Part shown: piece by piece, positions 5,848-45,112 of the stretch | Layout of the letters: every line of letters starts with the position of its first letter | How positions within the stretch are numbered: the first letter of the stretch is position 1 | Assembly (NCBI GenBank): GCA_951812955.1 | Contig: OX638340.1 | Location: 384,001 to 448,000, forward strand | Source of the DNA: an uncultured Gemmatimonadota bacterium | GTDB lineage: Bacteria > JAAXHH01 | Direction of reading: 5' to 3' | Length of the DNA: 64,000 bases | The notes under the pieces: generated by a model | Seen by the model: only the letters and a program-made list of their open reading frames with translations | What the model was told of the DNA's origin: nothing | Databases searched by the model: none | Translations under genes and position numbers: made by a program

Positions 5848-5896
5848 TAACCCCCGCGGATCAGCCTTCTCTGGCGTATATCCCCGCGGATCAGCC
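5838..5896. repeat. Tandem direct repeat (29 + 28 bp) duplicating the tRNA 3' end (att-like)
   Basis: ctctggcgtataacccccgcggatcagcc (5838-5866, begins inside the tRNA) and ctctggcgtatatccccgcggatcagcc (5869-5896). Confidence 0.8.
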
Positions 5897-6640
5897 CCGC
5901 CCTCCTGCCTGGTCATCATCGTCTTCTTCGCCAAGGTAAAGTTCGTTTTTCAGCAGATAACTTACCGTGGATGCATACCAACGGGTTTCCCTTGAAACCG
6001 CCGATGCACGTTTGGTGGGCACCTTCTGCTCATTGAGTTCATCCGCGATCTTGCGCAGGCTCCTGCCCTCGGCCCGCCAGTGCTTCACCTGCCTGATGAT
6101 CTCCTGCTCCCTTGAGTTGGGCACCAGCTGATTGCCGGACAGGTCGTATCCGTAAGGGATCGCGCCGTAAACGAACCGGTTGTTCTTTTTTTTCCGTATC
6201 CAGTTCTTCGTCCGCTCGGCGGGCAGGTCGCGGGCCAAACCGGCCAGCACGTTGAGCGTGCTCAGCACCACCTTCCCCTGTTCCTGATCGGTGCGGATGG
6301 ACATGCCATCGAGATCCAGCACGTGGCATATGATGCCTGCGCCGGACCAGGCCCCGAGGCAACCCGACATTTCGGCCGCTGACCTGAACAGCCGGTCGAG
6401 TCGCCAGATAACGATATGCTGGATGCCCTTCGATTCAACCGTGTTGGCCAGGTCCCGGCCACCCAGCCGATCCTCGAGCGGGATGAACGCCTCGACTCGG
6501 ATGTCGGGAATCACCAGCATGATGTCGAGGTCGTTTTCCGCGCAGTAGGACCTGAGCCGCTTCTCCTGGTCGGCCCTTCGAAAGGGATGCTTCCGGGTCT
6601 CCATCGGACCGACCCTGATATAGCATACCGCCTTTTTCAT
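5891..6640 (-). CDS. Truncated, degenerate serine recombinase (resolvase domain plus recombinase domain; catalytic Ser replaced by Gly)
   Basis: 249 aa. N-terminal MKKAVCYIRVGPME aligns to the serine-recombinase YxRVSTxxQ motif, but here it reads RVG-P. Resolvase-type LDRLFRS and recombinase-domain GAIPYGYDL are present; the zinc ribbon and coiled coil are missing. The stop codon lies inside att-like repeat B. Confidence 0.6.
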   Translation of the reverse strand: MKKAVCYIRVGPMETRKHPFRRADQEKRLRSYCAENDLDIMLVIPDIRVEAFIPLEDRLGGRDLANTVESKGIQHIVIWRLDRLFRSAAEMSGCLGAWSGAGIICHVLDLDGMSIRTDQEQGKVVLSTLNVLAGLARDLPAERTKNWIRKKKNNRFVYGAIPYGYDLSGNQLVPNSREQEIIRQVKHWRAEGRSLRKIADELNEQKVPTKRASAVSRETRWYASTVSYLLKNELYLGEEDDDDQAGGRG

Positions 6641-7388: not shown

Positions 7389-8648
7389 ATGAATTACGAG
7401 GTCATCGAGGCGCTGGCACAGATCATCCGTGAAAAGAACGTGGAGCGCGAAGTGGTCTGGGACACGGTGAAGACCGGCCTGATCACGGCGGCGAAGAAGC
7501 GATTCGGCACGGGCGACGACAACGTCGATGTGCGGATCGACGAAAAACTGGGAACGATCGAGATGGCTGCGGTCTGGGAGGTTGTGGACGAGGTGGAGGA
7601 TCCCGAGACGCAGATCAGCCTCTTAACGGCGAAGGGAATGGATCCGGAGGCGGAAATCGGGGGAAGAGTCGAACAGGCCCTGGCCTTCGAAGAGTTCGGC
7701 CGCAACGCGATACAGGCGGTGAAACAGGTCGTCGTGCAGCGCGTCCGGGAGGCGGAGCGGGAAAACGTCTATGAGATGTACAAAGACCGGGTCAACGAAA
7801 TCATAATCGGCAGCGTCCAGCAGGTGGACAGGGGCAATATCATCGTCAAGATAGAGCGCACCGAGGCGTTGCTTCCGTGGCGCGAGCAGATTCGGCGGGA
7901 AAGGTACCGGCAGGGTGAGACCATACGCGCCTATATTCTGGACGTGCAGAACGACATAAAGGGTCCCCAGGTCATTCTTTCGCGAAGCTGCGAGGCTTTC
8001 CTCGAACTCCTGTTCAGGATGGAAGTGCCGGAAATACACGAGGGCATTGTGGAAATCAAGGCATCTGCCCGGGAGCCCGGCGACCGGTCCAAGATCGCCG
8101 TCCTCTCACACGATGACCGGGTCGACGCGGTCGGGGCGTGCGTGGGTATGAAAGGCACCAGGGTACAGGCGGTCGTCCGAGAACTCAACAACGAACGTAT
8201 CGACATCGTGCCCTGGAGTAACGATCCGTCCTCCTTCGTGACCCAGGCGCTGCGTCCCGCCGAAGTAGCACAGGTCCAGATCCTGGACATCGAGAAAAAG
8301 GACATGCGCGTGGTCGTCGAGGATGACCAACTCTCGCTGGCCATAGGGAAGGCGGGCCAGAATGCCCGGCTCGCAGTAAAACTCACCGGATGGAATATCG
8401 ATCTGATCAAGCGTTCGGACCTCGAGAAGCAGCTCATCTCCGAGACATTCGGCTCGGATGACTCCGAATCGGAAGAAGCCGGATCGATTGCCGAAGTCGA
8501 CGGCATCTCGGAGAAGCTGGCTCAGAAGCTGGAAGACGCCGGCTACACGACGGTGGAGTCCCTTCAGCAAGCGACGGCCGACGAACTTCAGGCCATTTCA
8601 GGGATCGGCGGCGTGACGGCCGTCAAGATCATGACCGCGGTGCAGTAA
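7389..8648 (+). CDS. nusA: Transcription termination/antitermination factor NusA
   Basis: 419 aa with S1, KH and C-terminal HhH regions (VKIMTAVQ end). Conserved rimP-nusA-infB context. Confidence 0.9.
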   Translation: MNYEVIEALAQIIREKNVEREVVWDTVKTGLITAAKKRFGTGDDNVDVRIDEKLGTIEMAAVWEVVDEVEDPETQISLLTAKGMDPEAEIGGRVEQALAFEEFGRNAIQAVKQVVVQRVREAERENVYEMYKDRVNEIIIGSVQQVDRGNIIVKIERTEALLPWREQIRRERYRQGETIRAYILDVQNDIKGPQVILSRSCEAFLELLFRMEVPEIHEGIVEIKASAREPGDRSKIAVLSHDDRVDAVGACVGMKGTRVQAVVRELNNERIDIVPWSNDPSSFVTQALRPAEVAQVQILDIEKKDMRVVVEDDQLSLAIGKAGQNARLAVKLTGWNIDLIKRSDLEKQLISETFGSDDSESEEAGSIAEVDGISEKLAQKLEDAGYTTVESLQQATADELQAISGIGGVTAVKIMTAVQ

Positions 8649-17682: not shown

Positions 17683-19131
17683 ATGATCCAGATCAAAGAA
17701 ATCGACCTCCGCATCCAGAACATGCGCACCCGCATGCCCTTCAAATTTGGCATATCGACCATGACGGCCGTGCCGCACCTGGTGCTTCGCATGGAACTGG
17801 AAGTGAACGGACGCACCGGCAGCGGATATTCCGCGGATCACCTGCCGCCGAAGTGGTTCACGAAGAACCCGGAGACGTCCCTCGAGGACGAAGTAGGGGA
17901 CATGATCTCCGTTATCCGCCACGCAAGCGACGCCGCGCTGGCCCTGGGACCCGCGCCCGATCTGTTCACCCTCTGGCTCGAACTCTACCAGGCCCAGAAG
18001 ATCTGGGGCAACGGGAGAGGTTTTGCGCCACTCCTGTGGGGCCTGGGAAACAGCCTGGTGGAAAGGGCCATGATCGAGGCTTTCTGCCGCATACAGGGCA
18101 CGGATTTCGGTAAAGCCGTGCGATCAAACGCCTTCGGCATTCGTTTCGATGCGTTCAATAGCCGTTTGAAGGGCCTGGCGCCCGCCGATGTGTTGCCCGG
18201 CTCCCCGATCACAGTCACCAACGTGCGCCATACCGTAGGGCTGGGAGACCCCCTGACCACGCAGGATATACCGCCGGAGGAGCTTTGCAACGACGGGCTG
18301 CCCCAGTCGCTGGACGAAGTCATCGACACCTATGGCATAACGTACTTCAAGATCAAGCTGTTCGGGGATGTAGCACGGGATATAGATCGCCTGAAGCAGA
18401 CGGCCAGTATCATCGACGGGCGATTGAACCAGTATGCGTTCACGCTGGACGGCAATGAAAACTACGGAGACATGGAAACGTTCCGGTCCTTCTGGGAATC
18501 ACTGCGGGCCGACCGTAATCTGGCAGGATTCCTCGGGCGGCTAATCTGCATCGAGCAGCCATTGCATCGCGATATAGCGCTGGATAAAGCACTCAGTGAG
18601 CATTTCGAGGCATGGCCTGACAGGCCACCATTCATTATCGACGAATCCGATGGGGACATCGGCGACCTGGAACGGGCCGTCGATATCGGTTACGCGGGTA
18701 CAAGTTACAAGAACTGTAAAGGAGTGTTCAAAGGGCTGTCCAACGCAGCTTATCTCGAGTACCTGGCAAGACAGCATCCGGACCGCCGGTACGTACTGAC
18801 GAGCGAAGACCTGTCCAACATCGGGCCGATCGCTCTTGCGCAGGACCTCGCAGTATTGGCCACATTAGGGGTTGACCACACAGAGCGGAACAGCCACCAT
18901 TACTTCAGAGGATTGACGACCTGGCCCCGCAAGATCCAGGAACAGATGCGATTATGTCATCCGGATCTGTTCAGTGTGCACGAAGAAGGTTTCACATGCA
19001 TGCACATCGAACAGGGTCGGATCAGTCTGGAGAGCGTAACGAAAAGTCCCTTCGGGGTAGGATTCGAATTCGACAGTTCAAAGCTTACCCCGCTGGATGA
19101 CTGGGAATATGCTACGCTGGATGTTGAATAA
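17683..19131 (+). CDS. Enolase-superfamily (MR/MLE-like) protein, substrate unknown
   Basis: Capping-domain pattern IKEIDLRIQNMRTRMPFKFGISTMTAVPHLVLRMELEVNGRTGSG. Barrel motifs KIKLFGD (KxK), LDGNENYG, IEQPL, IDESDG as metal ligands. Unusually long at 482 aa. Confidence 0.6.
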   Translation: MIQIKEIDLRIQNMRTRMPFKFGISTMTAVPHLVLRMELEVNGRTGSGYSADHLPPKWFTKNPETSLEDEVGDMISVIRHASDAALALGPAPDLFTLWLELYQAQKIWGNGRGFAPLLWGLGNSLVERAMIEAFCRIQGTDFGKAVRSNAFGIRFDAFNSRLKGLAPADVLPGSPITVTNVRHTVGLGDPLTTQDIPPEELCNDGLPQSLDEVIDTYGITYFKIKLFGDVARDIDRLKQTASIIDGRLNQYAFTLDGNENYGDMETFRSFWESLRADRNLAGFLGRLICIEQPLHRDIALDKALSEHFEAWPDRPPFIIDESDGDIGDLERAVDIGYAGTSYKNCKGVFKGLSNAAYLEYLARQHPDRRYVLTSEDLSNIGPIALAQDLAVLATLGVDHTERNSHHYFRGLTTWPRKIQEQMRLCHPDLFSVHEEGFTCMHIEQGRISLESVTKSPFGVGFEFDSSKLTPLDDWEYATLDVE

Positions 19132-19189
19132 CAAGCGTGTGAGTGATGTTCGACATTTTGGAATTTTCATCGCGCGGAGAATTTACACC

Positions 19190-19780
19190 GAACCGGACGT
19201 ACAAATAGAAAGTAAATTGTACGCTTTCTGGAGCAAAACATACAGACAGAGTATTCATTGTACATTTGAAGCAGACCGATGTACAAATCATATAACAATT
19301 GTACAAATATACAGAAACGCTATGAAAGCACGCGAAATGAGCCTTCGGGCAGAGATCGATAAGAAAATCCGGCCGGTCACGATGAGCTCGCGGCATCAAT
19401 TAGTACGTTTCGGAACCGAAAATCGGGATTTCGAGGGTAGTTTCGACCCACCCCCTGACCCTCCAGGGACCGGATCAGAGCACATATAGATTTACATAAT
19501 ATCTATTATGCGAAGTAGGGATTTAGAGGGGTATACGAGGGATTTTGGGTCCGGAGACTATAAATCAGCTCAGAATAGACTTTCGAGAGGTAATGTACAA
19601 AAGAAAGATTATTTGTACGAACGCGGTAAATCTGAATACAAAAGAGGTAATGTTTGTACGAATGGGTGAATAGCATGTACAGAGATAGATAGAATAGTAC
19701 AGTGATACTAGTACAAATATAAAGATGGTTGTACAAGTTTGTTGAGATATCGTACTAAGAATAGATGTATTGTACGCAGG
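19190..19780. repeat. Phased array of ~15 TTGTACAA-like palindromic motifs in an AT-rich ORF-free island
   Basis: GTAC cores at 19198, 19220, 19261, 19283, 19302, 19402, 19597, 19615, 19658, 19679, 19700, 19713, 19732, 19755 and 19773. Perfect TTGTACAA at 19298-19305 and 19728-19735. Spacings are mostly 18-23 bp or 41-43 bp. Confidence 0.7.
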
Positions 19781-19926
19781 GTTATCTTAATAAAAATCTT
19801 AATTTGTATTTTTCGTGGCATGACAAATTAAAATCGAAAGATGTAAATGAAACAAACCTCGTTTCTTCAGAATGCAACCTCCCGTTCAATCCAGCATTCC
19901 AATCACCAATTTCCAGAGTAAATTCC

Positions 19927-20919
19927 TTGCGGTCACAACGACTGGTCAACACTGATTTCCGAAAGATAATACTGGAAGAGTATGAGATTCCTTCCGTGCC
20001 GGATGACAGTGTACTCGTACAAAACGAATATACTGCTGTCAGCGTAGGCACTGAAGTCTACAATTATATACATGGGTGTGAACCGGGCGGTGAGCCTCGA
20101 TTCCCCAGGAACACGGGCTATTGCAACGCAGGTGTAGCGCTGAAGGTTGGTAGGGACGTGCAGGGGATTGTACCGGGGGATCGTGTCGCCGGCCAGGGAA
20201 ACCACGCAAGTCATTCCATAATGTCGGGCTTGATCAGCAAGGTGCCGGCGAACGTATCGTCCAGGGCGGCGGCGTTCATGGTGATGTGTGCGACCTCATT
20301 GCATGGTCACCGCGTTGCCCGTCCCGAGCTGGGCGAGGCCGTCGTAGTGACCGGCATGGGCATCGTCGGTCAATTGGCTGCATCCTTTGCCCGGCTGAGC
20401 GGCGCTGTACCCGTCATTGGCGTGGATTTGGACGACTTTCGCCTTCAAAAAGCCCGTGAACGCGGGGTCGACGTGTGTATCAACCCGGAAAAGGAACCTG
20501 ATGTGGCTGAGGCGGTGCGCCGGTACTGTGCGGCAGACGGTGCTGACTTGGTCATCGAAGCGACCGGGGTACCCTCCGTGTATCCAATGGCACTGACCCT
20601 GCCGAGACTCGGCGGCCGTTTGCTCGCCCTCGGTTCGCCGCGCGGATCGGTGGAAGTGAGCTTTTTCGCCGAGGTCCATCTGCGCGAGGTCACGATCCTG
20701 GGCGCCCACCAGCCCAAAACACCTGATGAGGCTGACCTGTACTATCCCTGGAGCAAGCGAAGGGACCGCGACCTGGTCCTCCGGCTCATGGGTGAAGGAA
20801 AACTGCCGATCGAAGACCTGATTACTCACGAAGCAAATCCCGCCGATTGCCAGTCCGTTTACGACATGCTTGCGGATCGTCCCAGGGATGTGCTTGGGGT
20901 GGTGTTCAGGTGGGTGTGA
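19927..20919 (+). CDS. MDR-superfamily (Zn-ADH-like) oxidoreductase
   Basis: ILEEYEIPSVPDDSVLVQNEYTAVSVGTE catalytic-domain start. Rossmann GxGxxG (VTGMGIVGQLAA). Start uncertain: TTG 19927, or the track ATG 19765 within AT-rich sequence. Confidence 0.7.
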   Translation: MRSQRLVNTDFRKIILEEYEIPSVPDDSVLVQNEYTAVSVGTEVYNYIHGCEPGGEPRFPRNTGYCNAGVALKVGRDVQGIVPGDRVAGQGNHASHSIMSGLISKVPANVSSRAAAFMVMCATSLHGHRVARPELGEAVVVTGMGIVGQLAASFARLSGAVPVIGVDLDDFRLQKARERGVDVCINPEKEPDVAEAVRRYCAADGADLVIEATGVPSVYPMALTLPRLGGRLLALGSPRGSVEVSFFAEVHLREVTILGAHQPKTPDEADLYYPWSKRRDRDLVLRLMGEGKLPIEDLITHEANPADCQSVYDMLADRPRDVLGVVFRWV

Positions 20920-20972: not shown

Positions 20973-21065
20973 GTCGGGTTTCACCATTGTACCGGTGAAT
21001 CCCGGTATGCGTAACCATTTGCAAGACAAGCATTTACCAATTGTATGAAATCGAGAGGAAGTTCC

Positions 21066-21308
21066 ATGACCGTATCCATCAAGCTCTTTGCCACCCTGCG
21101 GAAATTCCTGCCCGAAAACGCGGTCAACAAAACCGCGACGCTTGAACTCGGAGACCAGGCCACGGCGAGCGATATCATCAAGCAATTGGACATCCCCGAT
21201 GGCCACATACACCTGATTCTGATCGACGGCAAGCACTCGGCTGAAGACACCCCCCTTACCGACGGCGCGGTGGTCAGCTTTTTTCCACCGATTGCCGGCG
21301 GGGCGTAG
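21066..21308 (+). CDS. MoaD/ThiS-family sulfur-carrier-like protein (C-terminus ...PPIAGG-A)
   Basis: 80 aa, beta-grasp pattern (SIKLFATLRKFLP...TLEL...ATASDII...HIHLILIDGKH). GG plus one extra Ala. RBS gaggaag. Confidence 0.7.
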   Translation: MTVSIKLFATLRKFLPENAVNKTATLELGDQATASDIIKQLDIPDGHIHLILIDGKHSAEDTPLTDGAVVSFFPPIAGGA

Positions 21309-21313
21309 GGTCG

Positions 21314-21607
21314 GTGTCCCACCATACCTTCTACGGATTCAAGCTGGAAGACGCCGTACGGGGACTGAAACGGGCGCTGCGGGACGAACAGATCCCCGTC
21401 GTATCGATCAGCGAGGATGAAAACAAGGTAGTCTTCGCAGTTCGGATCTCATCTGAAACAGGCAAAATCAGCCTGGTCGCCCATACCACCAATGCCCATC
21501 CCCTGGCCAGGCTCGGTGATATACCCGCGATCGAAGTCGCGGTCGACGATCATCTCCCCGATGTTAGGTCCGTGCTCACCATGGCATTTCTGAGAGGCGG
21601 AGGCTGA
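21314..21607 (+). CDS. Small PII-like (GlnB-superfamily-like) protein, unknown function
   Basis: 97 aa. FYGFKLEDAVRGLKRALRDEQIPVVSISE resembles the PII/DUF190 beta-alpha-beta start. 5-bp gaps to both neighbours. Confidence 0.35.
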   Translation: MSHHTFYGFKLEDAVRGLKRALRDEQIPVVSISEDENKVVFAVRISSETGKISLVAHTTNAHPLARLGDIPAIEVAVDDHLPDVRSVLTMAFLRGGG

Positions 21608-24791: not shown

Positions 24792-24842
24792 CTAAATTAC
24801 TTGACTACCTCCCTCCCCCTTCATATCATGTTGACTAAATTA
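24792..24842 (+). promoter_or_regulatory. Putative promoter (TTGACT-N17-TATCAT) flanked by two CTAAATTA elements (candidate Rrf2 operator)
   Basis: CTAAATTA at 24792-24799 and 24835-24842. TTGACT at 24801-24806. TATCAT at 24824-24829. The Rrf2 gene starts at 24875. Confidence 0.35.
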
Positions 24843-24874
24843 GTAAACTAACGCCTGATGGCGAGGGAGGACGC

Positions 24875-25315
24875 ATGCGGGTATCGGCCAAGGCGGAGTA
24901 TGCTTGCAGGGCCGTGCTGGAGTTGACAAGGTACCATGAGAAGGCGGAAGTCATCCATATCGGCGACATTGCCGTCCGCCAGTCCATACCGGAGAAGTAC
25001 CTCGTTCAGATCCTGCTGCAGTTGCAGCGCGCCGGGCTGGTCAAGAGCAAACGCGGGGCGACAGGCGGATATGCGCTCGCCCGCGCACCGGGAGAGATCT
25101 CGCTGGGTGATGTGATCCGGGCGATGGACGGCGCGCTGATCGCCGTCGAGAGCCTGTCCGACGATACGAATGTGTCCGATCAAATGAGCGGCCAGCATGT
25201 ATTGAAGAACGTCTGGATGGATGTGCAGGATAGACTCGGCGAAATCATGGACGGGATCACTTTCGATGAAATCTCGCGACAGGCGCAAAAAAGCCTTTCC
25301 ATGTACTACATATAA
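24875..25315 (+). CDS. Rrf2-family transcriptional regulator (CymR/IscR-like)
   Basis: 146 aa; wHTH AKAEYACRAVLELTR...GDIAVRQSIPEKYLVQILLQLQRAGLVKSKRGATGGYALAR. Confidence 0.85.
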   Translation: MRVSAKAEYACRAVLELTRYHEKAEVIHIGDIAVRQSIPEKYLVQILLQLQRAGLVKSKRGATGGYALARAPGEISLGDVIRAMDGALIAVESLSDDTNVSDQMSGQHVLKNVWMDVQDRLGEIMDGITFDEISRQAQKSLSMYYI

Positions 25316-25325
25316 GGGATAGAAC

Positions 25326-26273
25326 TTGGCGTCCGGAACTGGAATAATCGACAGCGCACTCGATCTGATCGGGCATACCCCGCTCATTCGCCTTGGACGA
25401 ATAAATGAAAGTCCAGGCGTCCAAGTACTCGGCAAGCTCGAATCGGAAAACCCGGGCGGCAGCGTGAAGGACCGCGTTGGCCTGAGCATGATCCTGGACG
25501 CCGAACGAAGAGGCCTGCTCAGCCCGGGCGGTACGATCGTGGAGCCTACGAGCGGAAACACCGGGCTCGGCCTGAGCATGGTGGCCGCGGTGAAGGGCTA
25601 CAAGGTCATACTTGTCATGCCGGACAACATGAGTTCGGAGCGGCGGGTATTGCTGACCTCCTACGGTGCTGAACTGGTCCTGACGCCGGGTATGCTCGGC
25701 ATGGCCGGCGCTGTGCAGAAGGCGGAGGAGATTCTTCGGGAACATCCCGGTTATTTCATGCCCCAGCAGTTCAAGAATCCCGCCAACGTGGAGATACACC
25801 GCAAGACCACCGCGGAGGAGATCTGGGAAGCGACCGGCGGGAAAATCGACGCCTTTGTGGCAGCCGTGGGCACGGGGGGTACGTTGACGGGCGTGGGACA
25901 GTTTCTGAAGGAAAAGGACGAACGAATCCGCGTCATCGCGGTGGAACCATCATTGTCCCCGGTGATATCGGGCAAGCCAGTGGAGAGCCTGGTGCATGCC
26001 ATCCAGGGGATCGGCGCCGGGTTCATACCGGACATCCTGGATACGTCGATTATCGATGAAGTGATACTGATCGACGACGAGGACGCGTACCAGTCGGCCC
26101 GCCGTCTGGGCATGGAGGAAGGGCTCCTGGTGGGCATTTCGGCCGGCGCCAACGTATGCGCCAGCCTGAAGGTGGCAGAGAATATGGGAGAAGGGACGAT
26201 CGTGACCATCCTGTGCGATACCGGCGAAAGATACCTGAGCATCCGGGAATACTTTGAAGGACAGGGAGATTAA
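25326..26273 (+). CDS. cysK: Cysteine synthase family (CysK/CysM-like) PLP-dependent sulfhydrylase
   Basis: PLP lysine motif NPGGSVKDR, TSGNTG loop, GTGGT glycine loop. Whether it is CysK or CysM is ambiguous. Confidence 0.85.
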   Translation: MASGTGIIDSALDLIGHTPLIRLGRINESPGVQVLGKLESENPGGSVKDRVGLSMILDAERRGLLSPGGTIVEPTSGNTGLGLSMVAAVKGYKVILVMPDNMSSERRVLLTSYGAELVLTPGMLGMAGAVQKAEEILREHPGYFMPQQFKNPANVEIHRKTTAEEIWEATGGKIDAFVAAVGTGGTLTGVGQFLKEKDERIRVIAVEPSLSPVISGKPVESLVHAIQGIGAGFIPDILDTSIIDEVILIDDEDAYQSARRLGMEEGLLVGISAGANVCASLKVAENMGEGTIVTILCDTGERYLSIREYFEGQGD

Positions 26274-26289
26274 CAGGAGGAACCGTTTG

Positions 26290-26661
26290 ATGTCCGTTAC
26301 CGTACGAATTCCAACCCCGCTGCGCAAGTTGACCGGCAACCAGTCCGTAATCGAAATCGACGGCGATACCGTCGAATCGCTGATCGGGAACATGGAAGCA
26401 TCCTACCCCGGAATCAAGGATCGCATCTGCGACGAGTCCGGGAAAGTGCGGCGGTTCATCAACATCTACATCAACGAAGAAGATATCCGGTTTCTGGATG
26501 GCACCGGTACCACGGTGAAAACAGGAGACCGGATCTCCATCGTCCCCGCCATCGCCGGCGGTCTGGGCGACCTGGGCGGTCCAGGTGGTCAAGGCGGTCC
26601 CGTCAGTTCCGCCAATCCTGACGGTCCCGTCTGTCCTGTCGGTTCGCGGGACATTGGCTGA
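26290..26661 (+). CDS. MoaD/ThiS/CysO-like sulfur-carrier protein with a 33-aa Gly/Pro-rich extension after the GG motif
   Basis: MSVTVRIPTPLRKLTG...IEIDGDTVESLIGNME...ISIVPAIAGG followed by LGDLGGPGGQGGPVSSANPDGPVCPVGSRDIG. RBS caggagga. 17 bp after cysK. Stop overlaps the ThrB start (TGATG). Confidence 0.75.
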   Translation: MSVTVRIPTPLRKLTGNQSVIEIDGDTVESLIGNMEASYPGIKDRICDESGKVRRFINIYINEEDIRFLDGTGTTVKTGDRISIVPAIAGGLGDLGGPGGQGGPVSSANPDGPVCPVGSRDIG

Positions 26662-27566
26662 TGTCCTCCGTGCGGGTGCGCGTACCCGCGACGACCGGCA
26701 ACCTGGGTTCCGGCTACGACTGCGCCGGCATGGCCCTCGGCCTGTATAACACCATCGAGTTCGCCGAAACGGAATCCGGACTGGACGTGACCATGGAGGG
26801 CGAAGGCGCCGACGCGGTACCGCTCGATGAAGGCAACCTGTGCATCGTCTCCGCACGGGCCGTCTTCGATGCCGCGGACTGGCGACCCCCCGGTCTCCTG
26901 GCACGCATGCGCCACGCGATTCCTGTGTCACGGGGCCTGGGCAGCAGCGGAGTCGCCATCGTGGCGGGCGCCGTTGCGGCCAATGAACTCGCGGGAAGGC
27001 CGCTGGACAAGTCCGAACTCCTACGCATCTGTTCCGAACTGGAAGGCCATCCGGACAACGTCGTACCTTCCCTGCTCGGTGGCCTCTCCGTGAGCGGCGA
27101 GCGGTCGGGAGCGATCGTATACCAGACCTTCAGGGTTCCCGACGACATCAAGGCCATCGTGGCCATTCCCGAATTTACGCTCGACACGAAGGTTGCCCGC
27201 GGCGTCCTGCCTGAATCCGTATCCATGGAGGACGCGGTCTACAATCTTTGTAGCGTGGGACTGCTCATCGGCGGCATGATTACGGGTAATTACGCCTTGC
27301 TCAGGGAGGGCATGGCCGATCGCCTGCACCAGCCCTACCGGCAGCACCTGGTTCCTGGCCTGGCGGAGGTCACCGGAGACGCCCTGGATGCCGGTGCCCA
27401 CGGCGCAGCCCTCAGCGGCGCCGGACCGACGGCCATCGCCCTGGCGACGGAAGATCACGAGGGGATCGGGCAAGCCATGGTCGAAGCCTTCGCCCGGCAC
27501 GGCGTTTCCGGACAGTTCCGGATCCTCCCGATAGACAACGACGGATGCCAGGTGCTGCAGGACTGA
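26661..27566 (+). CDS. thrB: Homoserine kinase-like GHMP kinase
   Basis: VPATTGNLGSGYDCAGMAL (ThrB motif 1) and PVSRGLGSSGVAIVAGAVAAN (GHMP motif 2). Confidence 0.8.
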   Translation: MSSVRVRVPATTGNLGSGYDCAGMALGLYNTIEFAETESGLDVTMEGEGADAVPLDEGNLCIVSARAVFDAADWRPPGLLARMRHAIPVSRGLGSSGVAIVAGAVAANELAGRPLDKSELLRICSELEGHPDNVVPSLLGGLSVSGERSGAIVYQTFRVPDDIKAIVAIPEFTLDTKVARGVLPESVSMEDAVYNLCSVGLLIGGMITGNYALLREGMADRLHQPYRQHLVPGLAEVTGDALDAGAHGAALSGAGPTAIALATEDHEGIGQAMVEAFARHGVSGQFRILPIDNDGCQVLQD

Positions 27567-27611: not shown

Positions 27612-28796
27612 ATGGGCGCACTCAAGGACATTCGCGTCATCGACCTCACCCGGGTGCTCGCGGGTCCATTCACGACCATGACCCTGGGCGACCTGGGCGC
27701 CGATATCATCAAGGTCGAACCCTTCGGCGGGGACGAGGCGCGGGGATTCGGTCCCTTCAAAGAGGGCGTAAGCGGCTACTTCGAGAATGTCAACCGGGGC
27801 AAGCAGAGCATCGCCATCGATCTGAAGCATCCTGACGGACGCTACCTGCTCCTCGAATTGATCGCGAAGTCGGACGTGCTGGTGGAGAACTTCAGGCCGG
27901 GCGTGATGAAGAAACTCGGACTGGACTACGAGACTTTGCAGGAGCGGTTCCCGGGGCTGATCTACGCGGCCTGTTCCGGATTCGGACAGACCGGACCCTA
28001 CGCCCGGCGCGGGGCCTACGACATGATCATCCAGGGTATGGGCGGTATCGTCAGCATAACGGGCGAACCTGACCGCCCTCCTGTACGGGTGGGCGTATCC
28101 ATCGGGGATATCGCCGCCGCGCTATATTCCTGTATCGGCATTCTCACGGCACTATTCACCAGGACGCAGACGGGCAGGGGACAGATGGTGGACATCGGCA
28201 TGCTGGACTGCCAGGTCGCTCTCCTCGAGAACGCCATCGCCCGTTACGACATGACGGGCACCGTTCCGGAACCGCTCGGGGCCAGGCATCCATCCATCAC
28301 GCCCTTTCAGGCTGTCGAGACCCGGGACGGATGGATCATGATCGCGGCGGGGAACAACGTGCTCTGGCGCCGGCTGTGCGAAGTCGTTGAACGTGAGGAC
28401 CTGGCCGACGACGCACGCTTCAGGGACAACAACCTGCGCACCGAAAACAACGCCGACCTGCACACGATCCTGAGCGATGTATTCCGAGAAAGTACGACGG
28501 AAGACTGGCTGAGACGATTGGATGCAGCTGAGATACCTTGCGGGCCCATCCAGAATGTCCGGCAGGTCGTGGAAGATCCCCAGGTACTTGCCCGCGACAT
28601 GATCGTGAATCTCCTGCACCCTATCGCCGGCTCCCTGCGTGTAGCCGGTTCTCCAATAAAACTCTCAGAAACCCCGCCGGAAGTCACCCGGCACGCCCCC
28701 GCCCTGGGTGAACATACCGATCAGGTGCTGAAGTCGCTGCTCCAGGCGACCGGGGACGACCTGGCGCGCTGGCGCGAATCGGGTGCAATTCGTTAG
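27612..28796 (+). CDS. Family III CoA-transferase (CaiB/BaiF/formyl-CoA transferase-like)
   Basis: IRVIDLTRVLAGPFTTMTLGDLGADIIKVEP N-terminus; catalytic Asp in ...GAYDMIIQGMGG. Confidence 0.85.
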   Translation: MGALKDIRVIDLTRVLAGPFTTMTLGDLGADIIKVEPFGGDEARGFGPFKEGVSGYFENVNRGKQSIAIDLKHPDGRYLLLELIAKSDVLVENFRPGVMKKLGLDYETLQERFPGLIYAACSGFGQTGPYARRGAYDMIIQGMGGIVSITGEPDRPPVRVGVSIGDIAAALYSCIGILTALFTRTQTGRGQMVDIGMLDCQVALLENAIARYDMTGTVPEPLGARHPSITPFQAVETRDGWIMIAAGNNVLWRRLCEVVEREDLADDARFRDNNLRTENNADLHTILSDVFRESTTEDWLRRLDAAEIPCGPIQNVRQVVEDPQVLARDMIVNLLHPIAGSLRVAGSPIKLSETPPEVTRHAPALGEHTDQVLKSLLQATGDDLARWRESGAIR

Positions 28797-39179: not shown

Positions 39180-40175
39180 TTAAGGTGCGGGCAGGTTGCT
39201 AAGCACGGTCCTCGCCCTGGTGCGGATATAGGCGTTTTCGTCGGAAACCATCCGGGCCCTTAGTACCCTTTCCAGGTCTTCGTCGATCGAGGTCGGCACC
39301 TGCTCCTGCAGCCGGTTGATCGCGTTGATTCTGAGGGCCGGATTCTCGTCGAAGACCAGTGTGTGGATCATGGCGTCTCTGATCCCCTCGTCAAAAGGAT
39401 ACCGGGAGAGGGCGTTGAACGCCTCGCCCCTGACCCCGGCATTCGAGTCCGTTTTCAAGGCGGTGACGAGGGCATCCTTGATCTCATGCTCCGAATGCAG
39501 GATTTCGGAATCGCTCACGGCGTTCACCGCCCGCAGCCGGACGCCGGGATTCTGTTCATTAAGTACGGCAAAGGTGAGTACACGTTGTATGCCGGGATCG
39601 TCGAGCGTTCCTCTGATCTGCACGGGCCGGACGGCTTCGAACTGGAATTCCAACATGCCATCGGGGGCGCCGGAATCCACGAACCGAACGTTTGAAATGG
39701 CCACGTCGTCATTGGTCAACAGGTCCGTCTGATCCATGCCCGGCGTCGCGAATCCAATGGAACGGTCTCCCTGGAAGGCCAGGTAGTAACCGGCAACCAG
39801 GCCGATGAACAACAGCAGTGCTCCCCCGAGGACGGAGCGGTAGGAAGGAAAGGTGTTTATCGTAACCCTTTGCAAGCCGTCTACTATGCGACCTGCCCAC
39901 CCGCTTGGGATGTGGAGACCCGGGCGGCCGAGTGTCACGTTGGACCAAAATCGGTTTCGAGCTTCATTCAGGTCTGCCGCACCAGGCCTGGCAGGGGCGG
40001 CTTCCCCCATGACCAGTCTGAATTCATCCAGACGGGCGCGGTACGCCCGGCATTGATCACATGATTCGAGATGGACGTCCAACCGCCGCTGATCTGCATC
40101 GGACAATTCACCGTATTGGGAGAGTTCCAGCCATTCTTCCCATTTCGTGTGAGACCGGCTCCTGTCTTCTTTCAT
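39180..40175 (-). CDS. Anti-sigma factor: N-terminal zinc-finger (HxxxCxxC) domain, TM segment, C-terminal HEAT repeats
   Basis: LDVHLESCDQCRAYRARL ZAS-like motif. Hydrophobic segment. HEAT-like repeats in the C-half. Its ATG overlaps the sigma-factor stop (ATGA); the internal ATG at 40175 was chosen. Confidence 0.7.
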   Translation of the reverse strand: MKEDRSRSHTKWEEWLELSQYGELSDADQRRLDVHLESCDQCRAYRARLDEFRLVMGEAAPARPGAADLNEARNRFWSNVTLGRPGLHIPSGWAGRIVDGLQRVTINTFPSYRSVLGGALLLFIGLVAGYYLAFQGDRSIGFATPGMDQTDLLTNDDVAISNVRFVDSGAPDGMLEFQFEAVRPVQIRGTLDDPGIQRVLTFAVLNEQNPGVRLRAVNAVSDSEILHSEHEIKDALVTALKTDSNAGVRGEAFNALSRYPFDEGIRDAMIHTLVFDENPALRINAINRLQEQVPTSIDEDLERVLRARMVSDENAYIRTRARTVLSNLPAP

Positions 40176-40831
40176 TTTCGTATGTCCTCGAGTTGACTGC
40201 GCAGTCTTCGGGTGGCATCGAAAAGGTATTTCTTTACCGTGCCTTCGGCACATTCCATGATTCCCGCTATCTCCCTCAGTTTGAATCCTTCGTGGTGGCG
40301 CAACACAAACACCGTTCGCAGACGGGGAGAAAGTGTACCGACGGCGGACCGGATCCGCGAAGCGATTTCGCTGTTGATGACTGCCGCGTCCGGCCGTTCG
40401 GGGGTAACGGGCGTAACACCGTAAGTGACCGTAGCCTGGTTTTCGTCGAACTTGTCTTCGATAGGGATGAACCGCCTGGTCCGGTTCCGCGACCGATGCG
40501 TGAGGCAGACATTGGTGACGATCCGGTACAGGTAGGTGGAAAACCGGCTGCGGAATTCGAAATCGGGCAGTGCCTTGAATACACGCATGAAGACTTCCTG
40601 GTATACATCCTTTGCGTCGTCCAGGTCGCCCACGAAGGACACGGCCATGGACAGCACTTTCTCGTCGTATCTGTATACGAGTTCTTCCAGGGCCCGCATG
40701 TCGCCTCCCCGGGCCTTGAGAATCAGCCTGCGCTCCTCCAGGTCCGTGCGATTTCCTGCCGAATCGTTATCCATGTGCTCTTCCCGATCATCCGGTGCGA
40801 TTCGGCCGTCGAGTTTACGGGCAGTTTCCAC
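40172..40831 (-). CDS. ECF-subfamily RNA polymerase sigma factor (sigma-24 type)
   Basis: Region 2 (LVYRYDEKVLSMAVSFVGDLDDAKDVYQEVFMRVFKAL) and region 4 (LSPRLRTVFVLRHHEGFKLREIAGIM). Confidence 0.85.
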   Translation of the reverse strand: METARKLDGRIAPDDREEHMDNDSAGNRTDLEERRLILKARGGDMRALEELVYRYDEKVLSMAVSFVGDLDDAKDVYQEVFMRVFKALPDFEFRSRFSTYLYRIVTNVCLTHRSRNRTRRFIPIEDKFDENQATVTYGVTPVTPERPDAAVINSEIASRIRSAVGTLSPRLRTVFVLRHHEGFKLREIAGIMECAEGTVKKYLFDATRRLRSQLEDIRK

Positions 40832-41508
40832 GTGGTTACCTGGTCACGTCGTGGTGCATGTGCGTGTAACTAAACTTCGAGAAACTTGCTGTCTCCGATC
40901 GGGCGCTTGGTGACCATGTGCGGGCACCTGATGATGACCTTTCTCGAGCCCTTGTGACTTTACGCTGGCGCGTGGCGCCTGGAATCCATATGCGGGATGC
41001 GGGCGCTTTATGTTCATGAGACCGTGTCTACATCGAATTGGTTGTGGACTAACGCGTTTTTTTAAAAGGAGACCGCGGGAGTATGCGGCGTATACACGAT
41101 CAACACGGTGCGCAATGCAGTCTTTAGGTGATTCAACGCACGGGAACGAGGAAAGTCGAGGGAATTACGGTTGAGGCATGTGGCGATGTGACGATACTGG
41201 CGTGTGGCGAGGTCTGTCCGGCGGACCGGATTCGAGTTCATGATCGTCAGTAAAGGCAGGAATGAGCTGGAAGGTGTTTGAAGGAGCGGGAAGGAGCTGG
41301 ACGAGCATATAACCAAAGGAATCAAAGACTTACGAATCCCAAGAAGGCAGGACGCCAGCGGCAGAGCAAGGATCTGCCGACTGGTCGGAATCGATCGACA
41401 TGATCGGAATCCGTTGTGTCAATAGCCGGAGGGTGGCCATTCAATCCGGTCGGTGGAACCGCACGAATTTTACGCAACCGGAAACAGGCCGCTCGATACG
41501 ACAGGCGT

Positions 41509-41703
41509 TCAGCCGTCCTTCGAGGTAGACGAACCTGACGTATTCTGATTCTCTTCGGCGGGCTCTTTCTTCTGTGCTTTCTTGAATTCGGTGATCCCCT
41601 GGCCCAATCCCTTGGCCAGTTCAGGGAGCTTCTTCGCGCCAAATAGGACCATGACGATTACAAGAATAATAATCAGTTCGGTCGTGCCGAAACTACCGAG
41701 CAT
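41509..41703 (-). CDS. tatA: Twin-arginine translocase subunit TatA/E
   Basis: 64 aa; [53 protein letters not shown]. Confidence 0.9.
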
Positions 41704-41922
41704 TTAAATCACCTCCTCAGAACGCAGGATACCTTTATTGCCCTGGTTTGTCAAGCGGCAATAAAAGGACTTCCATTCTGCCGCTTAGCTGCCAACGACC
41801 CGGCGCAGTCGCATGGGCATGCCGTTTAGAATACTTGCATAGAAGCAATTTGCGTGTTTACTTATTCCCTGACCACAAATTTTGAAGTCGCTGCCGGTTG
41901 ATTTTATACGTTCAAGGAGGAC

Positions 41923-42165
41923 ATGGTGACTGTACGCATTGTATACTGCGCTGATTGAAGCTATGAACAAGACGCCGCCGGGTTGGCGGTGAAATTACTT
42001 GAGTATTACAAACACGATATCGAGCAGTTGCAGCTTGTGCCTTCCGGGGGCGGCAGGTTCGAAGTCACCGTGGATGATTCGCTGATCTTCTCCAAACTGG
42101 GAACCGACCGGTTTCCCGAATACGGGGAGGTCAAGGACGCCATCGAGGCATCGATCGCGGGTTGA
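41923..42165 (+). CDS. SelW/Rdx-family selenoprotein (in-frame TGA = Sec at 41956-41958; CxxU motif)
   Basis: My translation across the TGA: MVTVRIVYCADUSYEQDAAGLAVKLLEYYKHDIEQLQLVPSGGGRFEVTVDDSLIFSKLGTDRFPEYGEVKDAIEASIAG. RBS caaggagga. The track shows only the C-terminal 60 aa (41983..42165). Confidence 0.7.
41973..41991 (+). promoter_or_regulatory. SECIS-like hairpin 15 nt downstream of the in-frame UGA
   Basis: CGCCGCC-GGGUU-GGCGGUG: 7-bp stem including one G-U pair, G/U-containing apical loop. Confidence 0.5.
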
Positions 42166-42273: not shown

Positions 42274-42615
42274 ATGAATATCTACGTTGCGCTGGAAGAC
42301 GAGATCGCCGTGCTTCGCATCGAGGGCAGATTGTGGGAAGAAGGAGACAGCGTTGAGCTGGATCGGATGATCGACGATACCCTTGACCGGGGATGCACGC
42401 GGTTCGTTGCCGATTTGACCGGCGTGCCCATCATGAACAGTTCCGGGTTGGGTTCGCTGATCGCGGCCATGAAGAAAATACGTTCCAGGTCCGGGGAGAT
42501 GGTGCTCACCGGCGTCAACGACCGCCTGGATCAACTGTTCCGGATCACCCGGCTGTACACGGTCTTCAAGAAGTATGACGATGTGGACGCCGCCGTGGAA
42601 AACATGCATGCCTGA
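42274..42615 (+). CDS. STAS-domain anti-sigma-factor antagonist (SpoIIAA/RsbV-like)
   Basis: 113 aa; phosphorylatable Ser region DLTGVPIMNSSGLGSLIAA. Confidence 0.8.
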   Translation: MNIYVALEDEIAVLRIEGRLWEEGDSVELDRMIDDTLDRGCTRFVADLTGVPIMNSSGLGSLIAAMKKIRSRSGEMVLTGVNDRLDQLFRITRLYTVFKKYDDVDAAVENMHA

Positions 42616-45112
42616 CTACCAGCCCCTGGACCTCACGCCGAGTTGCAACGCGCCCCGAAGCATTTACGATTCCATAACGGATCCTCCGCTCGGATCACAG
42701 GAATTCTATGGTCTTCCCTTTCAAATCGGCGACGGCGCCGGAGATTCCGACTGTTTCGTCGGCTTCGGTGACCAGATCGGCTGCTCGTCCTCTCCCGCAG
42801 CGATTCCCGTCGAAAGTTCCGCCGTCAACGTGATCTTCGCCCACGCGGTGATCCGTTCGGAAATCGAGGCCGGCGGTCCGATCGCCCTTCCCGTGGCCAC
42901 TTACCGGTTCATCTGGGACGACGGGCATGACGAGTCCGTTACGATCCGCGAGCGGTTCGAGATCGGCTACATGCCGCTGCCCTGGGGACAATACCCCTTC
43001 CTGTGCGTGCCCGATCAGAAGCCGGTTATTTACAACCGGTCCGGCGGCGATTGGAACGATGCCGGCCGCCGGCAGACCGAAGCCGAGCAGGGTTGGCCAC
43101 AGGGGTACTACCTCTGGGCATGGCGCAATCCCCGGCCCGACCAGGATATCCGTTCCATCGAAATCACGCCGCAGGGCCCACCTTTCGTCGTGGCCGCCAT
43201 CACGCTCGGCCATGTCGACGAAGATCCAATTTGCCGGTGGGCTGCCAGGGACGTCCAGGTCGAACTGAAAAACCCGAAGCGCGCGGAGAAACCCTTCGAC
43301 CTCGAAGTCGAAGTCGACCGCGGCTACGCCACATACGCCTATCCACTGCCCGGGCAGGTCGACCAGGCCTTCATGAACGACACCCACCGCGGATGGGGCC
43401 AGGCGGACAGCAACCGCTCCAGTCCCGCCCATGTTGGCGTGGCTGGCACGCCGTCGGCCACGGTGACCGTAAAACAGGACGGGAAGGCGGTCGGGTCGGC
43501 TAACTGGGGCGAGCTGGAAGCGAAAGAGGTAGTCGATACGCCCGCGGTTCGATTCGAGGTCATCGACACGGGACGAAACTGGGTACACACCACGGTCCTG
43601 GACGACGAGACCGGCCACCCCGTGCCCTGCCGTGTGCATTTTCGATCTGCCAAGGGTGTGCCGTACGCGCCCCACGGCCACCACGCCCACGTGAATTCGA
43701 ACCTGGATACCTGGCACGTGGACGTGGGCGGCGACGTCAGGCTGGGACAGATGTCCTATGCGTACATCGACGGCAGGTGCCAGGGCTGGCTGCCCCGGGG
43801 CGAGGTGCACGTGGACGTGGCCCGGGGATTCGAATATGAGCCGATTCGCGAGTGCGTCACCATCGATCCCGGGCAACGCGAGCTTACCCTCAGGCTGAAG
43901 CGGTGGACCGATCTGAACGCGGAACGGTATTTCAGCGGCGACACCCACGTGCATTTCCTCTCCACCCAGGGCGCTCACCTGGAGGCCCAGGGGGAAGACC
44001 TGAACGTGGTCAATCTCCTGCTGTCCCAATGGGGAGGCCTTTTCACGAACACGGAGGAGTTCACCGGATCGGCGAGCGCGTCGCCGGACGGAGATACGAT
44101 CGTTTACGCCTCGCAGGAAAACCGGCAGCACATCCTGGGCCACCTTTCGCTCCTCGGCCTCAAAGAACCGGTCATGCCCTGGTGTTCGGACGGACCCGGT
44201 GAAGCGGAACTGGGAGGCAACCTGGAAACGACCCTGTCGTACTGGGCCGACGCCTGCCATGCGCAGGGCGGGACGGTCGTGATTCCCCATATCCCCAATC
44301 CAAACTGCGAACCGGCGGTTCTCATCGCCACGGACCGCGCCGACGCCGTGGAGATGCTGGTGCACAGCGAGTACAATCACCTCGAATACTACCGGTACCT
44401 GAACTGCGGCTACCGTCTGCCGCTCACGGGCGGGACGGACAAGATGTCCAGCGACGTGCCCGTGGGGATCTACCGGACCTATGCCTACATCCCGCCGGAC
44501 GAGCCCTTTACCTACGACAACTGGTGCAAGGCGCTGCGCGGCGGCAACACCTTCCTGAGCGCGGGACCCATCATCCGGTTCACGGTGAACGGCCGGCCGA
44601 TCGGCGATACGGTAAATCTACCCGGCAACGGCGGGACGGTGGAGATCGAGGCGTCGGCGGATTCGACCCTGCCGATCCATACCCTGGAAATCGTGCAGCA
44701 GGGCAAGGTCGTCGCCGCTACGGAAGAGATGAAAGGCGTCCGCCGGTTATCGCTCAAGACCTCCCTGAAGATTGAAAGCCACACGTGGCTGGCGGCCCGG
44801 TGCGCCGGACCGAACTACTCCAGCGTACCGCACCACGACGGCTGGCGCCGCGGCATCATGGCCCATACGTCGCCGGTATACGTGGCCTGCGGCGGCCCCT
44901 ACTGGCTGTTCGACCTGGAAAACGCCCAGTACATGCTGAGCCTGATCGAAGGGGGCCTTTCCTACATCAAGCGTCGAAGTTGGCAACACAAGCCGGAAAC
45001 GACCACCCACCACCACGGCGGCGACGACCACGAAGCCTTTCTCGAAGCCCCATACCTGCAGGCGCGGGAAGCCATCCACCGCCGCATGCACGAACTGAAC
45101 ATCCCGCATTGA
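42608..45112 (+). CDS. Large PHP-domain (CehA/McbA-like) metallohydrolase with an N-terminal domain of unknown function
   Basis: FSGDTHVHF, VIPHIPNP and LPLTGGTDKMS resemble PHP-domain metal-binding motifs. Start (ATG 42608) overlaps the STAS 3' end by 8 nt. Confidence 0.55.
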   Translation: MPDYQPLDLTPSCNAPRSIYDSITDPPLGSQEFYGLPFQIGDGAGDSDCFVGFGDQIGCSSSPAAIPVESSAVNVIFAHAVIRSEIEAGGPIALPVATYRFIWDDGHDESVTIRERFEIGYMPLPWGQYPFLCVPDQKPVIYNRSGGDWNDAGRRQTEAEQGWPQGYYLWAWRNPRPDQDIRSIEITPQGPPFVVAAITLGHVDEDPICRWAARDVQVELKNPKRAEKPFDLEVEVDRGYATYAYPLPGQVDQAFMNDTHRGWGQADSNRSSPAHVGVAGTPSATVTVKQDGKAVGSANWGELEAKEVVDTPAVRFEVIDTGRNWVHTTVLDDETGHPVPCRVHFRSAKGVPYAPHGHHAHVNSNLDTWHVDVGGDVRLGQMSYAYIDGRCQGWLPRGEVHVDVARGFEYEPIRECVTIDPGQRELTLRLKRWTDLNAERYFSGDTHVHFLSTQGAHLEAQGEDLNVVNLLLSQWGGLFTNTEEFTGSASASPDGDTIVYASQENRQHILGHLSLLGLKEPVMPWCSDGPGEAELGGNLETTLSYWADACHAQGGTVVIPHIPNPNCEPAVLIATDRADAVEMLVHSEYNHLEYYRYLNCGYRLPLTGGTDKMSSDVPVGIYRTYAYIPPDEPFTYDNWCKALRGGNTFLSAGPIIRFTVNGRPIGDTVNLPGNGGTVEIEASADSTLPIHTLEIVQQGKVVAATEEMKGVRRLSLKTSLKIESHTWLAARCAGPNYSSVPHHDGWRRGIMAHTSPVYVACGGPYWLFDLENAQYMLSLIEGGLSYIKRRSWQHKPETTTHHHGGDDHEAFLEAPYLQAREAIHRRMHELNIPH

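Follow-up and report, generated by a model that had tools for sequence, protein, structure and literature searches.

A gene arrangement linking a homoserine kinase to a CysK-type enzyme and a CysO-type sulfur carrier in an uncultured bacterial clade

Carrier-dependent routes to cysteine and homocysteine have already been described. In Mycobacterium tuberculosis, the carrier gene is part of mec-cysO-cysM (Rv1334-Rv1336), the CysM of which depends on O-phosphoserine and CysO, and the E1 enzyme MoeZR is encoded away from this cluster. A methionine pathway via a carrier thiocarboxylate, comprising HcyS, HcyD, HcyF and MetY, was reportedly worked out in Wolinella succinogenes by Krishnamoorthy and Begley in 2011. 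The genes of sulfur amino-acid metabolism in Bacillus subtilis are under the control of CymR, a repressor of the Rrf2 family that lacks Fe-S ligands and acts jointly with CysK. MetM, MetO, Mec and MoeZ of Streptomyces albulus reportedly lead from O-phosphohomoserine to homocysteine, MetM being a threonine-synthase homologue (bioRxiv 10.1101/2024.10.14.618325; PMC12172450, summarising Hasebe et al. 2024). The present analysis concerns a stretch of 64,000 nucleotides from an uncultured Gemmatimonadota bacterium (contig OX638340.1, positions 384,001 to 448,000; referred to below as the window), which carries in close succession the genes for an Rrf2-family regulator, a CysK-type pyridoxal phosphate (PLP) enzyme, a CysO-type sulfur carrier with a C-terminal tail and the homoserine kinase ThrB. 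What is new compared to the described routes is that thrB is included, that the partner enzyme is CysK-type and that the carrier has a long tail of hypervariable length.

The arrangement is new and limited to one uncultured clade, and every part of it comes from a known family. We consider it moderately probable that the locus is a CymR-like sulfur operon, in which a CysK/CysO cysteine module is combined with the normal thrB of the cell. CysK would produce cysteine by beta-replacement on O-acetylserine, with free sulfide or perhaps the carrier thiocarboxylate as the sulfur donor. For the carrier to be used, a JAMM protease would have to remove its tail and a MoeZ/MoeB-type E1 would have to activate it, and the genes of these two enzymes would be located outside the window. 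ThrB would serve as the general homoserine kinase of the cell, converting homoserine to O-phosphohomoserine, a compound that CysK is not expected to take, and the Rrf2 protein would bind a palindrome at the promoter and repress the operon.

The operon, its regulator and its PLP enzyme

The initial annotation of the window had proposed four open reading frames (ORFs) in this region, all of which were recovered on the plus strand with identical boundaries, and the gene families assigned to them were supported by Pfam and curated NCBI models. Together with a fifth gene and the upstream control elements, the locus comprises the following features:

24801-24829, plus strand: sigma-70-type promoter, TTGACT-17 nt-TATCAT (consensus scan, 10/12 matches)
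24830-24848: palindromic operator GTTGACTAAATTAGTAAAC, directly 3' of the -10 element, presumed Rrf2 site
24875-25315, plus strand: Rrf2-family regulator, CymR-like (PF02082, E 7.6e-34; TIGR00738, 115 bits)
25326-26273, plus strand: CysK-type O-acetylserine sulfhydrylase with a TTG start (PF00291, E 9.6e-78; TIGR01139)
26290-26562, plus strand: core of a sulfur carrier of the CysO/MetO family, 91 aa ending AIAGG (PF02597, E 3.7e-15)
26563-26661, plus strand: Gly/Pro-rich 32-aa tail of the carrier and its stop codon, which overlaps the thrB ATG
26661-27566, plus strand: ThrB homoserine kinase (TIGR00191; PF00288 and PF08544)
27612-28796, plus strand: family-III CoA-transferase, the fifth gene (PF02515, E 1.6e-136)

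The order Rrf2-CysK-carrier-ThrB-CoA-transferase was found in every related locus examined, and the linkage on which the initial annotation had built is thus conserved in the relatives. The module is carried by assemblies from sponges and groundwater and by further metagenome contigs, and their labels are Gemmatimonadota, Latescibacterota or Zixibacteria. The window shares 95-99% identity with one Gemmatimonadetes assembly (L013, isolate APA_bin_41) and hence probably derives from an organism of this type. The wider neighborhood is largely syntenic as well, with OmpA, RraA-like and FTCD genes upstream and leuB, leuA and ilvC downstream; in the groundwater locus L096, which is labelled Latescibacteria, the upstream genes differ, yet the five-gene unit is intact. 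Two sets of loci are informative about the position of thrB. A carrier survey, in which one genome per species was scanned with the carrier alignment and the loci were annotated by tblastn of seed proteins, yielded 80 loci. The control set of ordinary thrB loci consisted of 80 metagenome loci among the matches listed in a scan with the ThrB alignment (36-47% identity, none from the clade). Outside the clade, thrB occurred in none of the 76 carrier loci, and none of the 80 ordinary thrB loci had a carrier; among these listed matches, thrC was situated directly upstream of thrB in 16 of the 80. In the literature collection that was searched, no article combined CysO, thiocarboxylate and homoserine kinase. 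The arrangement is therefore unusual, as had been proposed, and the result of this search agrees with the suggestion that it is undescribed.

The genes are closely spaced. The gap between the Rrf2 and CysK genes is 10 nt, and 16 nt separate the CysK gene from the carrier ATG at 26290, which is preceded by an AGGAGG ribosome-binding site. The thrB ATG overlaps the carrier stop codon (TGATG) as annotated at the outset, the junction being GGCTGATG. ORFs on the antisense strand over the region gave no Pfam match. The -35 element CTTGAC and the -10 element TATCAT/TATAAT were kept across 11 related loci while the sequence of the 17-nt spacer varied, and L096 also has both elements. Immediately 3' of the -10 element, a palindrome with the consensus GTTGACyAAnnTrGTmAAC occurred in the same 11 loci and in L096, and its changes across the related loci were symmetrical in both half-sites, e.g., GTTGACCAAGTTGGTCAAC in L095. 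Further operator copies were sought in the window, and only the one site was found. As the conserved -35/-10 elements and the palindrome precede the first gene and the short gaps leave no space for internal promoters, a single transcript and hence the previously assumed co-transcription under the Rrf2 regulator are likely, and we infer that one Rrf2-repressed promoter serves the whole five-gene unit. The CoA-transferase gene, the product of which reaches no NCBIfam equivalog cut-off, was always located 3' of thrB, also in L096, and may share the same transcript; no link of this enzyme to sulfur or threonine metabolism was apparent.

The Rrf2 protein possesses a single Cys (residue 11). Because the Cys ligand set of the Fe-S-containing Rrf2 proteins (IscR/NsrR-type) is missing, the regulator is regarded as CymR-like. 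The CymR model was also its best specific NCBIfam match, with 91.3 bits and thus below the cut-off of 195. The similarity to the CymR-CysK system of B. subtilis therefore lies in an Rrf2 protein that is devoid of the Fe-S ligand set and has CymR as the best specific model; however, the score is far under the CymR cut-off, and the operator differs.

The PLP enzyme had initially been labelled CysM-type, which was contradicted by the sequence comparisons. The closest solved structures were CysK enzymes, including CysK1 of M. tuberculosis (2q3b, 342 bits), and M. tuberculosis CysM was not among the best 60 solved matches. The enzyme scored above the cut-off of the cysK model TIGR01139 (426.6 bits, cut-off 350.95) and below that of the CysM model TIGR01138 (317 bits, cut-off 394), and its identity was 41% to M. 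tuberculosis CysM and, with a provisional reference sequence, 53% to E. coli CysK. The enzyme was further aligned with M. tuberculosis CysM, whose query sequence was confirmed to be 100% identical to 3dwg_A, and with 60 CysK/CysM-like genes of related loci. An Arg equivalent to Arg220 of M. tuberculosis CysM had been suggested as a mark of phospho-substrate recognition; this column is occupied by Gln instead, within the canonical CysK loop SLVHAIQGIGAGFIP and an intact H-x-IQGIGAGFIP stretch. The motifs SVKDR, TSGNTG and GTGGT had been correctly recognized, and the PLP lysine, SVKDR, the Asn loop TSGNTG, the Gln of QQF, the phosphate loop GTGGT and GIS with the Ser of GISxG are all kept, as are 87 of 97 columns that are conserved in 27 CysK-type sequences. 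Judged by its sequence, the PLP enzyme is a canonical CysK. An identity as a cystathionine beta-synthase or MccA-like enzyme was rejected, as the TIGR01137 score of 313 is under the cut-off of 510 whereas the cysK cut-off is passed.

These results bear directly on the model put forward in the initial annotation, in which the CysK-like enzyme joins O-phosphohomoserine or O-phosphoserine to the carrier thiocarboxylate, yielding homocysteine or a dual route to both amino acids. The tight and conserved CysK-carrier-ThrB order is in accordance with this model, and the clade-specific changes of the enzyme cluster in the loop around the CysM Arg220 position, where PGPHK is replaced by SLVHA. However, by these changes one Lys is lost and no Arg or Lys is gained, so that no phosphate site is created and the use of a phospho-substrate is unsupported. 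The enzyme has the full set of PLP and substrate motifs typical of O-acetylserine sulfhydrylases and is on the CysK side of both model cut-offs. In addition, the phospho-substrate-type enzymes that are paired with carriers elsewhere are of another class, in which the Arg220 position is occupied by Lys or Arg. The chemistry established for CysK-type enzymes is beta-replacement, with an aminoacrylate as the intermediate; to our knowledge, only MetB/MetY-type and ThrC/MetM-type enzymes are established to catalyze gamma-replacement on homoserine esters. Direct use of O-phosphohomoserine by the PLP enzyme is therefore very unlikely, and the proposed synthesis of homocysteine from it by a CysM-type enzyme found no support, gamma-replacement being even less backed than binding of a phosphorylated substrate by a canonical CysK that has no phosphate-site residue. 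A self-contained homocysteine route, which would require new gamma-replacement chemistry in the CysK family with the SLVHA loop as an adaptation, is highly improbable, and the same holds for the model as a whole.

Our preferred reading, a CysK/CysO cysteine module, places the locus next to mec-cysO-cysM of M. tuberculosis. In both, a CysO-type carrier gene adjoins the gene of a fold-type-II PLP cysteine synthase, and an E1 for the window carrier would likewise be encoded elsewhere in the genome. The differences are that the window enzyme is CysK-type with Gln in place of Arg220, that no mec/JAMM gene is adjacent, and that Rrf2, thrB and the CoA-transferase gene belong to the unit of the window.

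The sulfur carrier, its tail and its relatives

The best solved matches of the carrier were CysO of M. tuberculosis (3dwg_C, E 9.6e-25) and CysO of Amycolatopsis (4n6e_B, E 3.6e-21), and residues P86, A87, I88, A89, G90 and G91 were invariant in the alignment of the carrier family. Close carrier homologues were found in assemblies labelled Gemmatimonadota. The matches to CysO structures agree with the earlier designation of the carrier as CysO-like. Such a carrier needs an activating E1 and a protease to trim its tail, and, as stated at the outset, neither gene was seen in the window; the scan covered those of the longer ORFs that were considered genuine, except for a few recognized only by synteny with L001. 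Also the flanks of the related loci contained no E1 or JAMM gene, and no thrC or hom was seen in the 64 kb of the window.

The tail behind AIAGG, at first counted as 33 residues, is 32 aa long. Residues beyond the invariant Gly-Gly were present in all carrier homologues and related loci examined, with the exception of one truncated entry, and the length of the tail ranged from 1 to 56 aa among the relatives and from 5 to 56 aa in the subgroup of the window. The tails of this subgroup consist of LG/GD/GP repeats, and the tail-coding DNA of the window contains 2.9 copies of the 9-nt repeat GGCGGTCCA. As the tails are always in frame and have the same ending, R/G-D-x-G, at the junction, we conclude that the tail is translated. 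It resembles a slippage-prone pro-peptide that would have to be removed before activation of the Gly-Gly terminus. Two other explanations for the tail, a sequencing or frameshift artefact and a linker of a carrier-ThrB fusion, were discarded. The 7 related loci compared and all tailed homologues with a fetched sequence keep the tail in frame, and the tail terminates in a TGA that shares bases with the ATG of thrB. The chain of M. tuberculosis CysO differs in that it ends at Gly-Gly. Residues past Gly-Gly, which have to be removed by a metalloprotease before activation, are reportedly shared with the carrier of W. succinogenes; however, the extension there is said to be a single residue as opposed to 1-56 here, and that pathway to use O-acetylhomoserine and the fold-type-I enzyme MetY.

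In most related loci, the carrier stop codon overlaps the start of thrB or lies directly next to it. In L096, the distance between the two genes is 110 bp (8290-8420), indicating that translational coupling of carrier and thrB is not universal. On inspection, this spacer appears to contain AAAATCCAAAAT-type units arranged as a long inverted repeat.

A second ThiS/MoaD-like gene is present in the window at 21045-21308 (PF02597 and Ub-Mut7C), and its product ends PPIAGGA, one residue past Gly-Gly. It is followed after 5 bases by a 97-aa ORF (21314-21607) without family match, ending GGG, and then by an OmpA-domain gene; the trio was kept in most related loci that reach far enough upstream.

In the carrier survey, the most frequent arrangement, which occurred in 51 of the 80 loci, was that a gene for a ThrC-like protein of about 410 aa immediately preceded the carrier gene. 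These ThrC-like proteins matched TIGR00260 (282 bits) and have an N-terminal Cys-rich ribbon, and genes for E1, NIL-domain, JAMM, CysK/CysM and Rrf2 proteins were often located near the pair. A combination of CysK-like enzyme, 3'-phosphoadenosine 5'-phosphosulfate (PAPS) reductase, carrier and JAMM, often with NIL, was found in 15 loci, mostly of Poribacteria; the thrB-bearing clade of the window accounted for 4 and other arrangements for 10. In 52 of the 80 species-level loci, a CysK/CysM-like gene was no more than 8 kb away from the carrier, and the window carrier was 56-67% identical to carriers directly behind ThrC-like genes. The loci in which genes passing the thrC model and encoding the Cys-rich ribbon precede CysO-like carriers (L013-L092, 51 of 80) come from many uncultured phyla. 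Judged by gene context, these neighbors are probably MetM-like homocysteine synthases and hence may be mis-named as threonine synthases in annotations.

With about 70% identity, the closest carriers outside the clade are those of the Poribacteria-type clusters, which likewise have a CysK-fold enzyme and sometimes Rrf2. They differ from the locus of the window in that they contain JAMM, a NIL-domain protein and PAPS reductase and no thrB, and in the loop of the CysK-like enzyme, TRIDGIGAG[RM]IP. Such clusters, with the order (Rrf2), CysK-like, PAPS reductase, carrier, JAMM and NIL, were observed in L002-L005 and L017-L025, and also in L034, L038, L040, L043, L046, L047, L073 and L097. Their CysK-like enzyme scores above the cysK cut-off and has Asp at the CysM Arg220 position with Arg residues flanking it, and this loop may be the sign of another substrate or of a class that depends on the carrier. 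A third class of PLP enzymes is encoded next to E1 and carrier genes in Nitrospinota, Thermodesulfobacteriota and others (L035, L050-L053, L062, L068, L085, L088). It is nearer to M. tuberculosis CysM in GT[GS]GT[IL]MG and has Lys at the Arg220 position (HGLEGLKHM), which makes these proteins candidate phospho-substrate, carrier-dependent cysteine synthases.

The survey also raises the question whether CysK and the carrier are partners at all. They may be mere neighbors, CysK working on free sulfide only and the carrier delivering sulfur to another acceptor, for example a MetM-type enzyme or a pathway leading to a cofactor or a thionucleoside. In line with this, the enzyme is a predicted canonical CysK with no CysM-type features, the immediate partner of the carrier in most phyla is a ThrC-like enzyme and not CysK, and in actinomycetes one E1 can serve several carriers. 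However, the two genes are only 16 nt apart in the window and adjacent in every related locus, and the carriers of Poribacteria occur in CysK-like/CysH/carrier/JAMM clusters without a ThrC-like gene, indicating a role in cysteine synthesis. We therefore regard such independence of the two proteins as possible, if somewhat unlikely.

The homoserine kinase and its place in the operon

ThrB of the window reached 267 bits with the thrB model TIGR00191 (cut-off 168.25), both GHMP domains (PF00288 and PF08544) matched, and solved homoserine kinases matched at E 5e-53. With 75 ThrBs from outside the clade as the reference, 53 of 56 near-invariant positions were kept, and the sole clade-wide change at these positions was Asn85 to His. 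Among the closest ThrB homologues, identity fell stepwise from 96 to 59% and then dropped to 52% or less; in the relatives that keep the promoter and the five genes, it was 60-98%. The nearest outside ThrBs (45-52% identity) include proteins named homoserine kinase in cultured Firmicutes; of the two nearest outgroup genes looked up, one is located behind a canonical thrC and one behind an alanine racemase gene. ThrB is thus predicted to be a canonical homoserine kinase. A role as a serine kinase that feeds O-phosphoserine to the PLP enzyme was rejected in view of the 53 conserved positions and a CysK that has no phosphate-binding residue.

If there is no functional reason for its position, thrB would be a co-regulated passenger in the sulfur operon. 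The most plausible functional reason, which we offer tentatively, would be that O-phosphohomoserine is a co-substrate of the threonine-synthase-like, MetM-type enzymes accompanying this carrier family in most other phyla. As O-phosphohomoserine and the carrier thiocarboxylate are the two substrates of such enzymes, the linkage would be meaningful with a MetM encoded elsewhere. Accordingly, the product of ThrB and the thiocarboxylated carrier might feed a distant MetM-type homocysteine synthase, and the carrier would be shared with cysteine synthesis by CysK. Several observations are in favor of this explanation. A ThrC-like gene is the direct upstream neighbor of the carrier in the 51 loci described above, and CysK/CysM-like and ThrC-like genes occur together around one carrier in several loci, e.g., L035, L052, L068 and L087. 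The pathway from O-phosphohomoserine via MetM, MetO, Mec and MoeZ has been reported. The close contact of carrier and thrB in most related loci, and the persistence of the module in L096 despite its changed upstream genes, are also in agreement. However, neither the window nor the flanking sequences of about a dozen related loci, which extend up to 10 kb, contain a ThrC-like gene, although a MetM would be expected beside the carrier as in 51 other lineages, and in the 80-locus survey thrB was never part of a MetM-like cluster. The ThrC-like proteins, moreover, are likened to MetM by context, and a cyanobacterial MetM homologue reportedly behaves as a threonine synthase and deaminase in vitro. 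We therefore consider a supply of a remote MetM rather unlikely.

In the comparison with MetM/MetO of S. albulus, common features are a carrier of the ThiS/MoaD-type family and the availability of the homoserine kinase product, and most relatives of the window carrier are likewise located directly behind a ThrC-like gene. The neighbor of the window carrier itself, in contrast, is CysK, and no ThrC-like/MetM, E1 or JAMM gene was found in the window or the related flanks.

Some points also weigh against our preferred reading of the locus, in which a CysK/CysO cysteine module and the normal thrB of the cell share one sulfur operon. With no E1 (ThiF/MoeB) or JAMM gene seen in the 64-kb window, a functional thiocarboxylate cycle is hypothetical for this organism, and we know of no report that a canonical CysK, as opposed to CysM, uses a carrier thiocarboxylate. 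For thrB in clusters that pair a ThrC-like gene with a carrier, there is no precedent, as it was within 8 kb of none of the 51 such loci. As synteny extends broadly beyond the five genes, the conserved order alone is weak evidence for a functional link with thrB. Finally, a sole homoserine kinase under a sulfur-responsive repressor would tie the threonine supply to the sulfur status of the cell, which would be strange if repression were complete and no second kinase existed.

Further features of the window and implications

Apart from the operon, the window contains a gene for a short serine recombinase (249 aa, Resolvase and Recombinase domains; 5891-6640, minus strand) between a MiaB-like radical-SAM gene and rimP-nusA-infB, which may be the remnant of a mobile element. 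The G+C content, about 0.60 elsewhere, dips to 0.49 at 18001-20000 and to 0.54 at 40001-42000, the former dip being flanked by an ADH-like gene and by a 482-aa ORF whose sole match, to enolase-C, is weak. An 845-aa ORF at 42575-45112 (plus strand) has only a sub-threshold match to PD40 repeats and adjoins a 204-aa ORF without match.

The locus does not reveal a new pathway. It represents a gene arrangement in which a canonical thrB is translationally coupled to a CysO-type carrier and CysK behind one promoter that is presumably controlled by Rrf2. The pro-peptide of the carrier, hypervariable between 1 and 56 residues, provides a natural test set for the specificity of trimming proteases. The carrier family is widespread in uncultured phyla, mostly beside genes for threonine-synthase-like proteins, which annotations routinely call threonine synthase, and their possible mis-naming is relevant to pathway-gap tools that predict methionine or cysteine auxotrophy from metagenome-assembled genomes. 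In plants, O-phosphohomoserine is the branch point between threonine and methionine. If a MetM-type enzyme is present in the genomes of this clade, O-phosphohomoserine would, as in plants, be a branch point between threonine and methionine, here under sulfur control.

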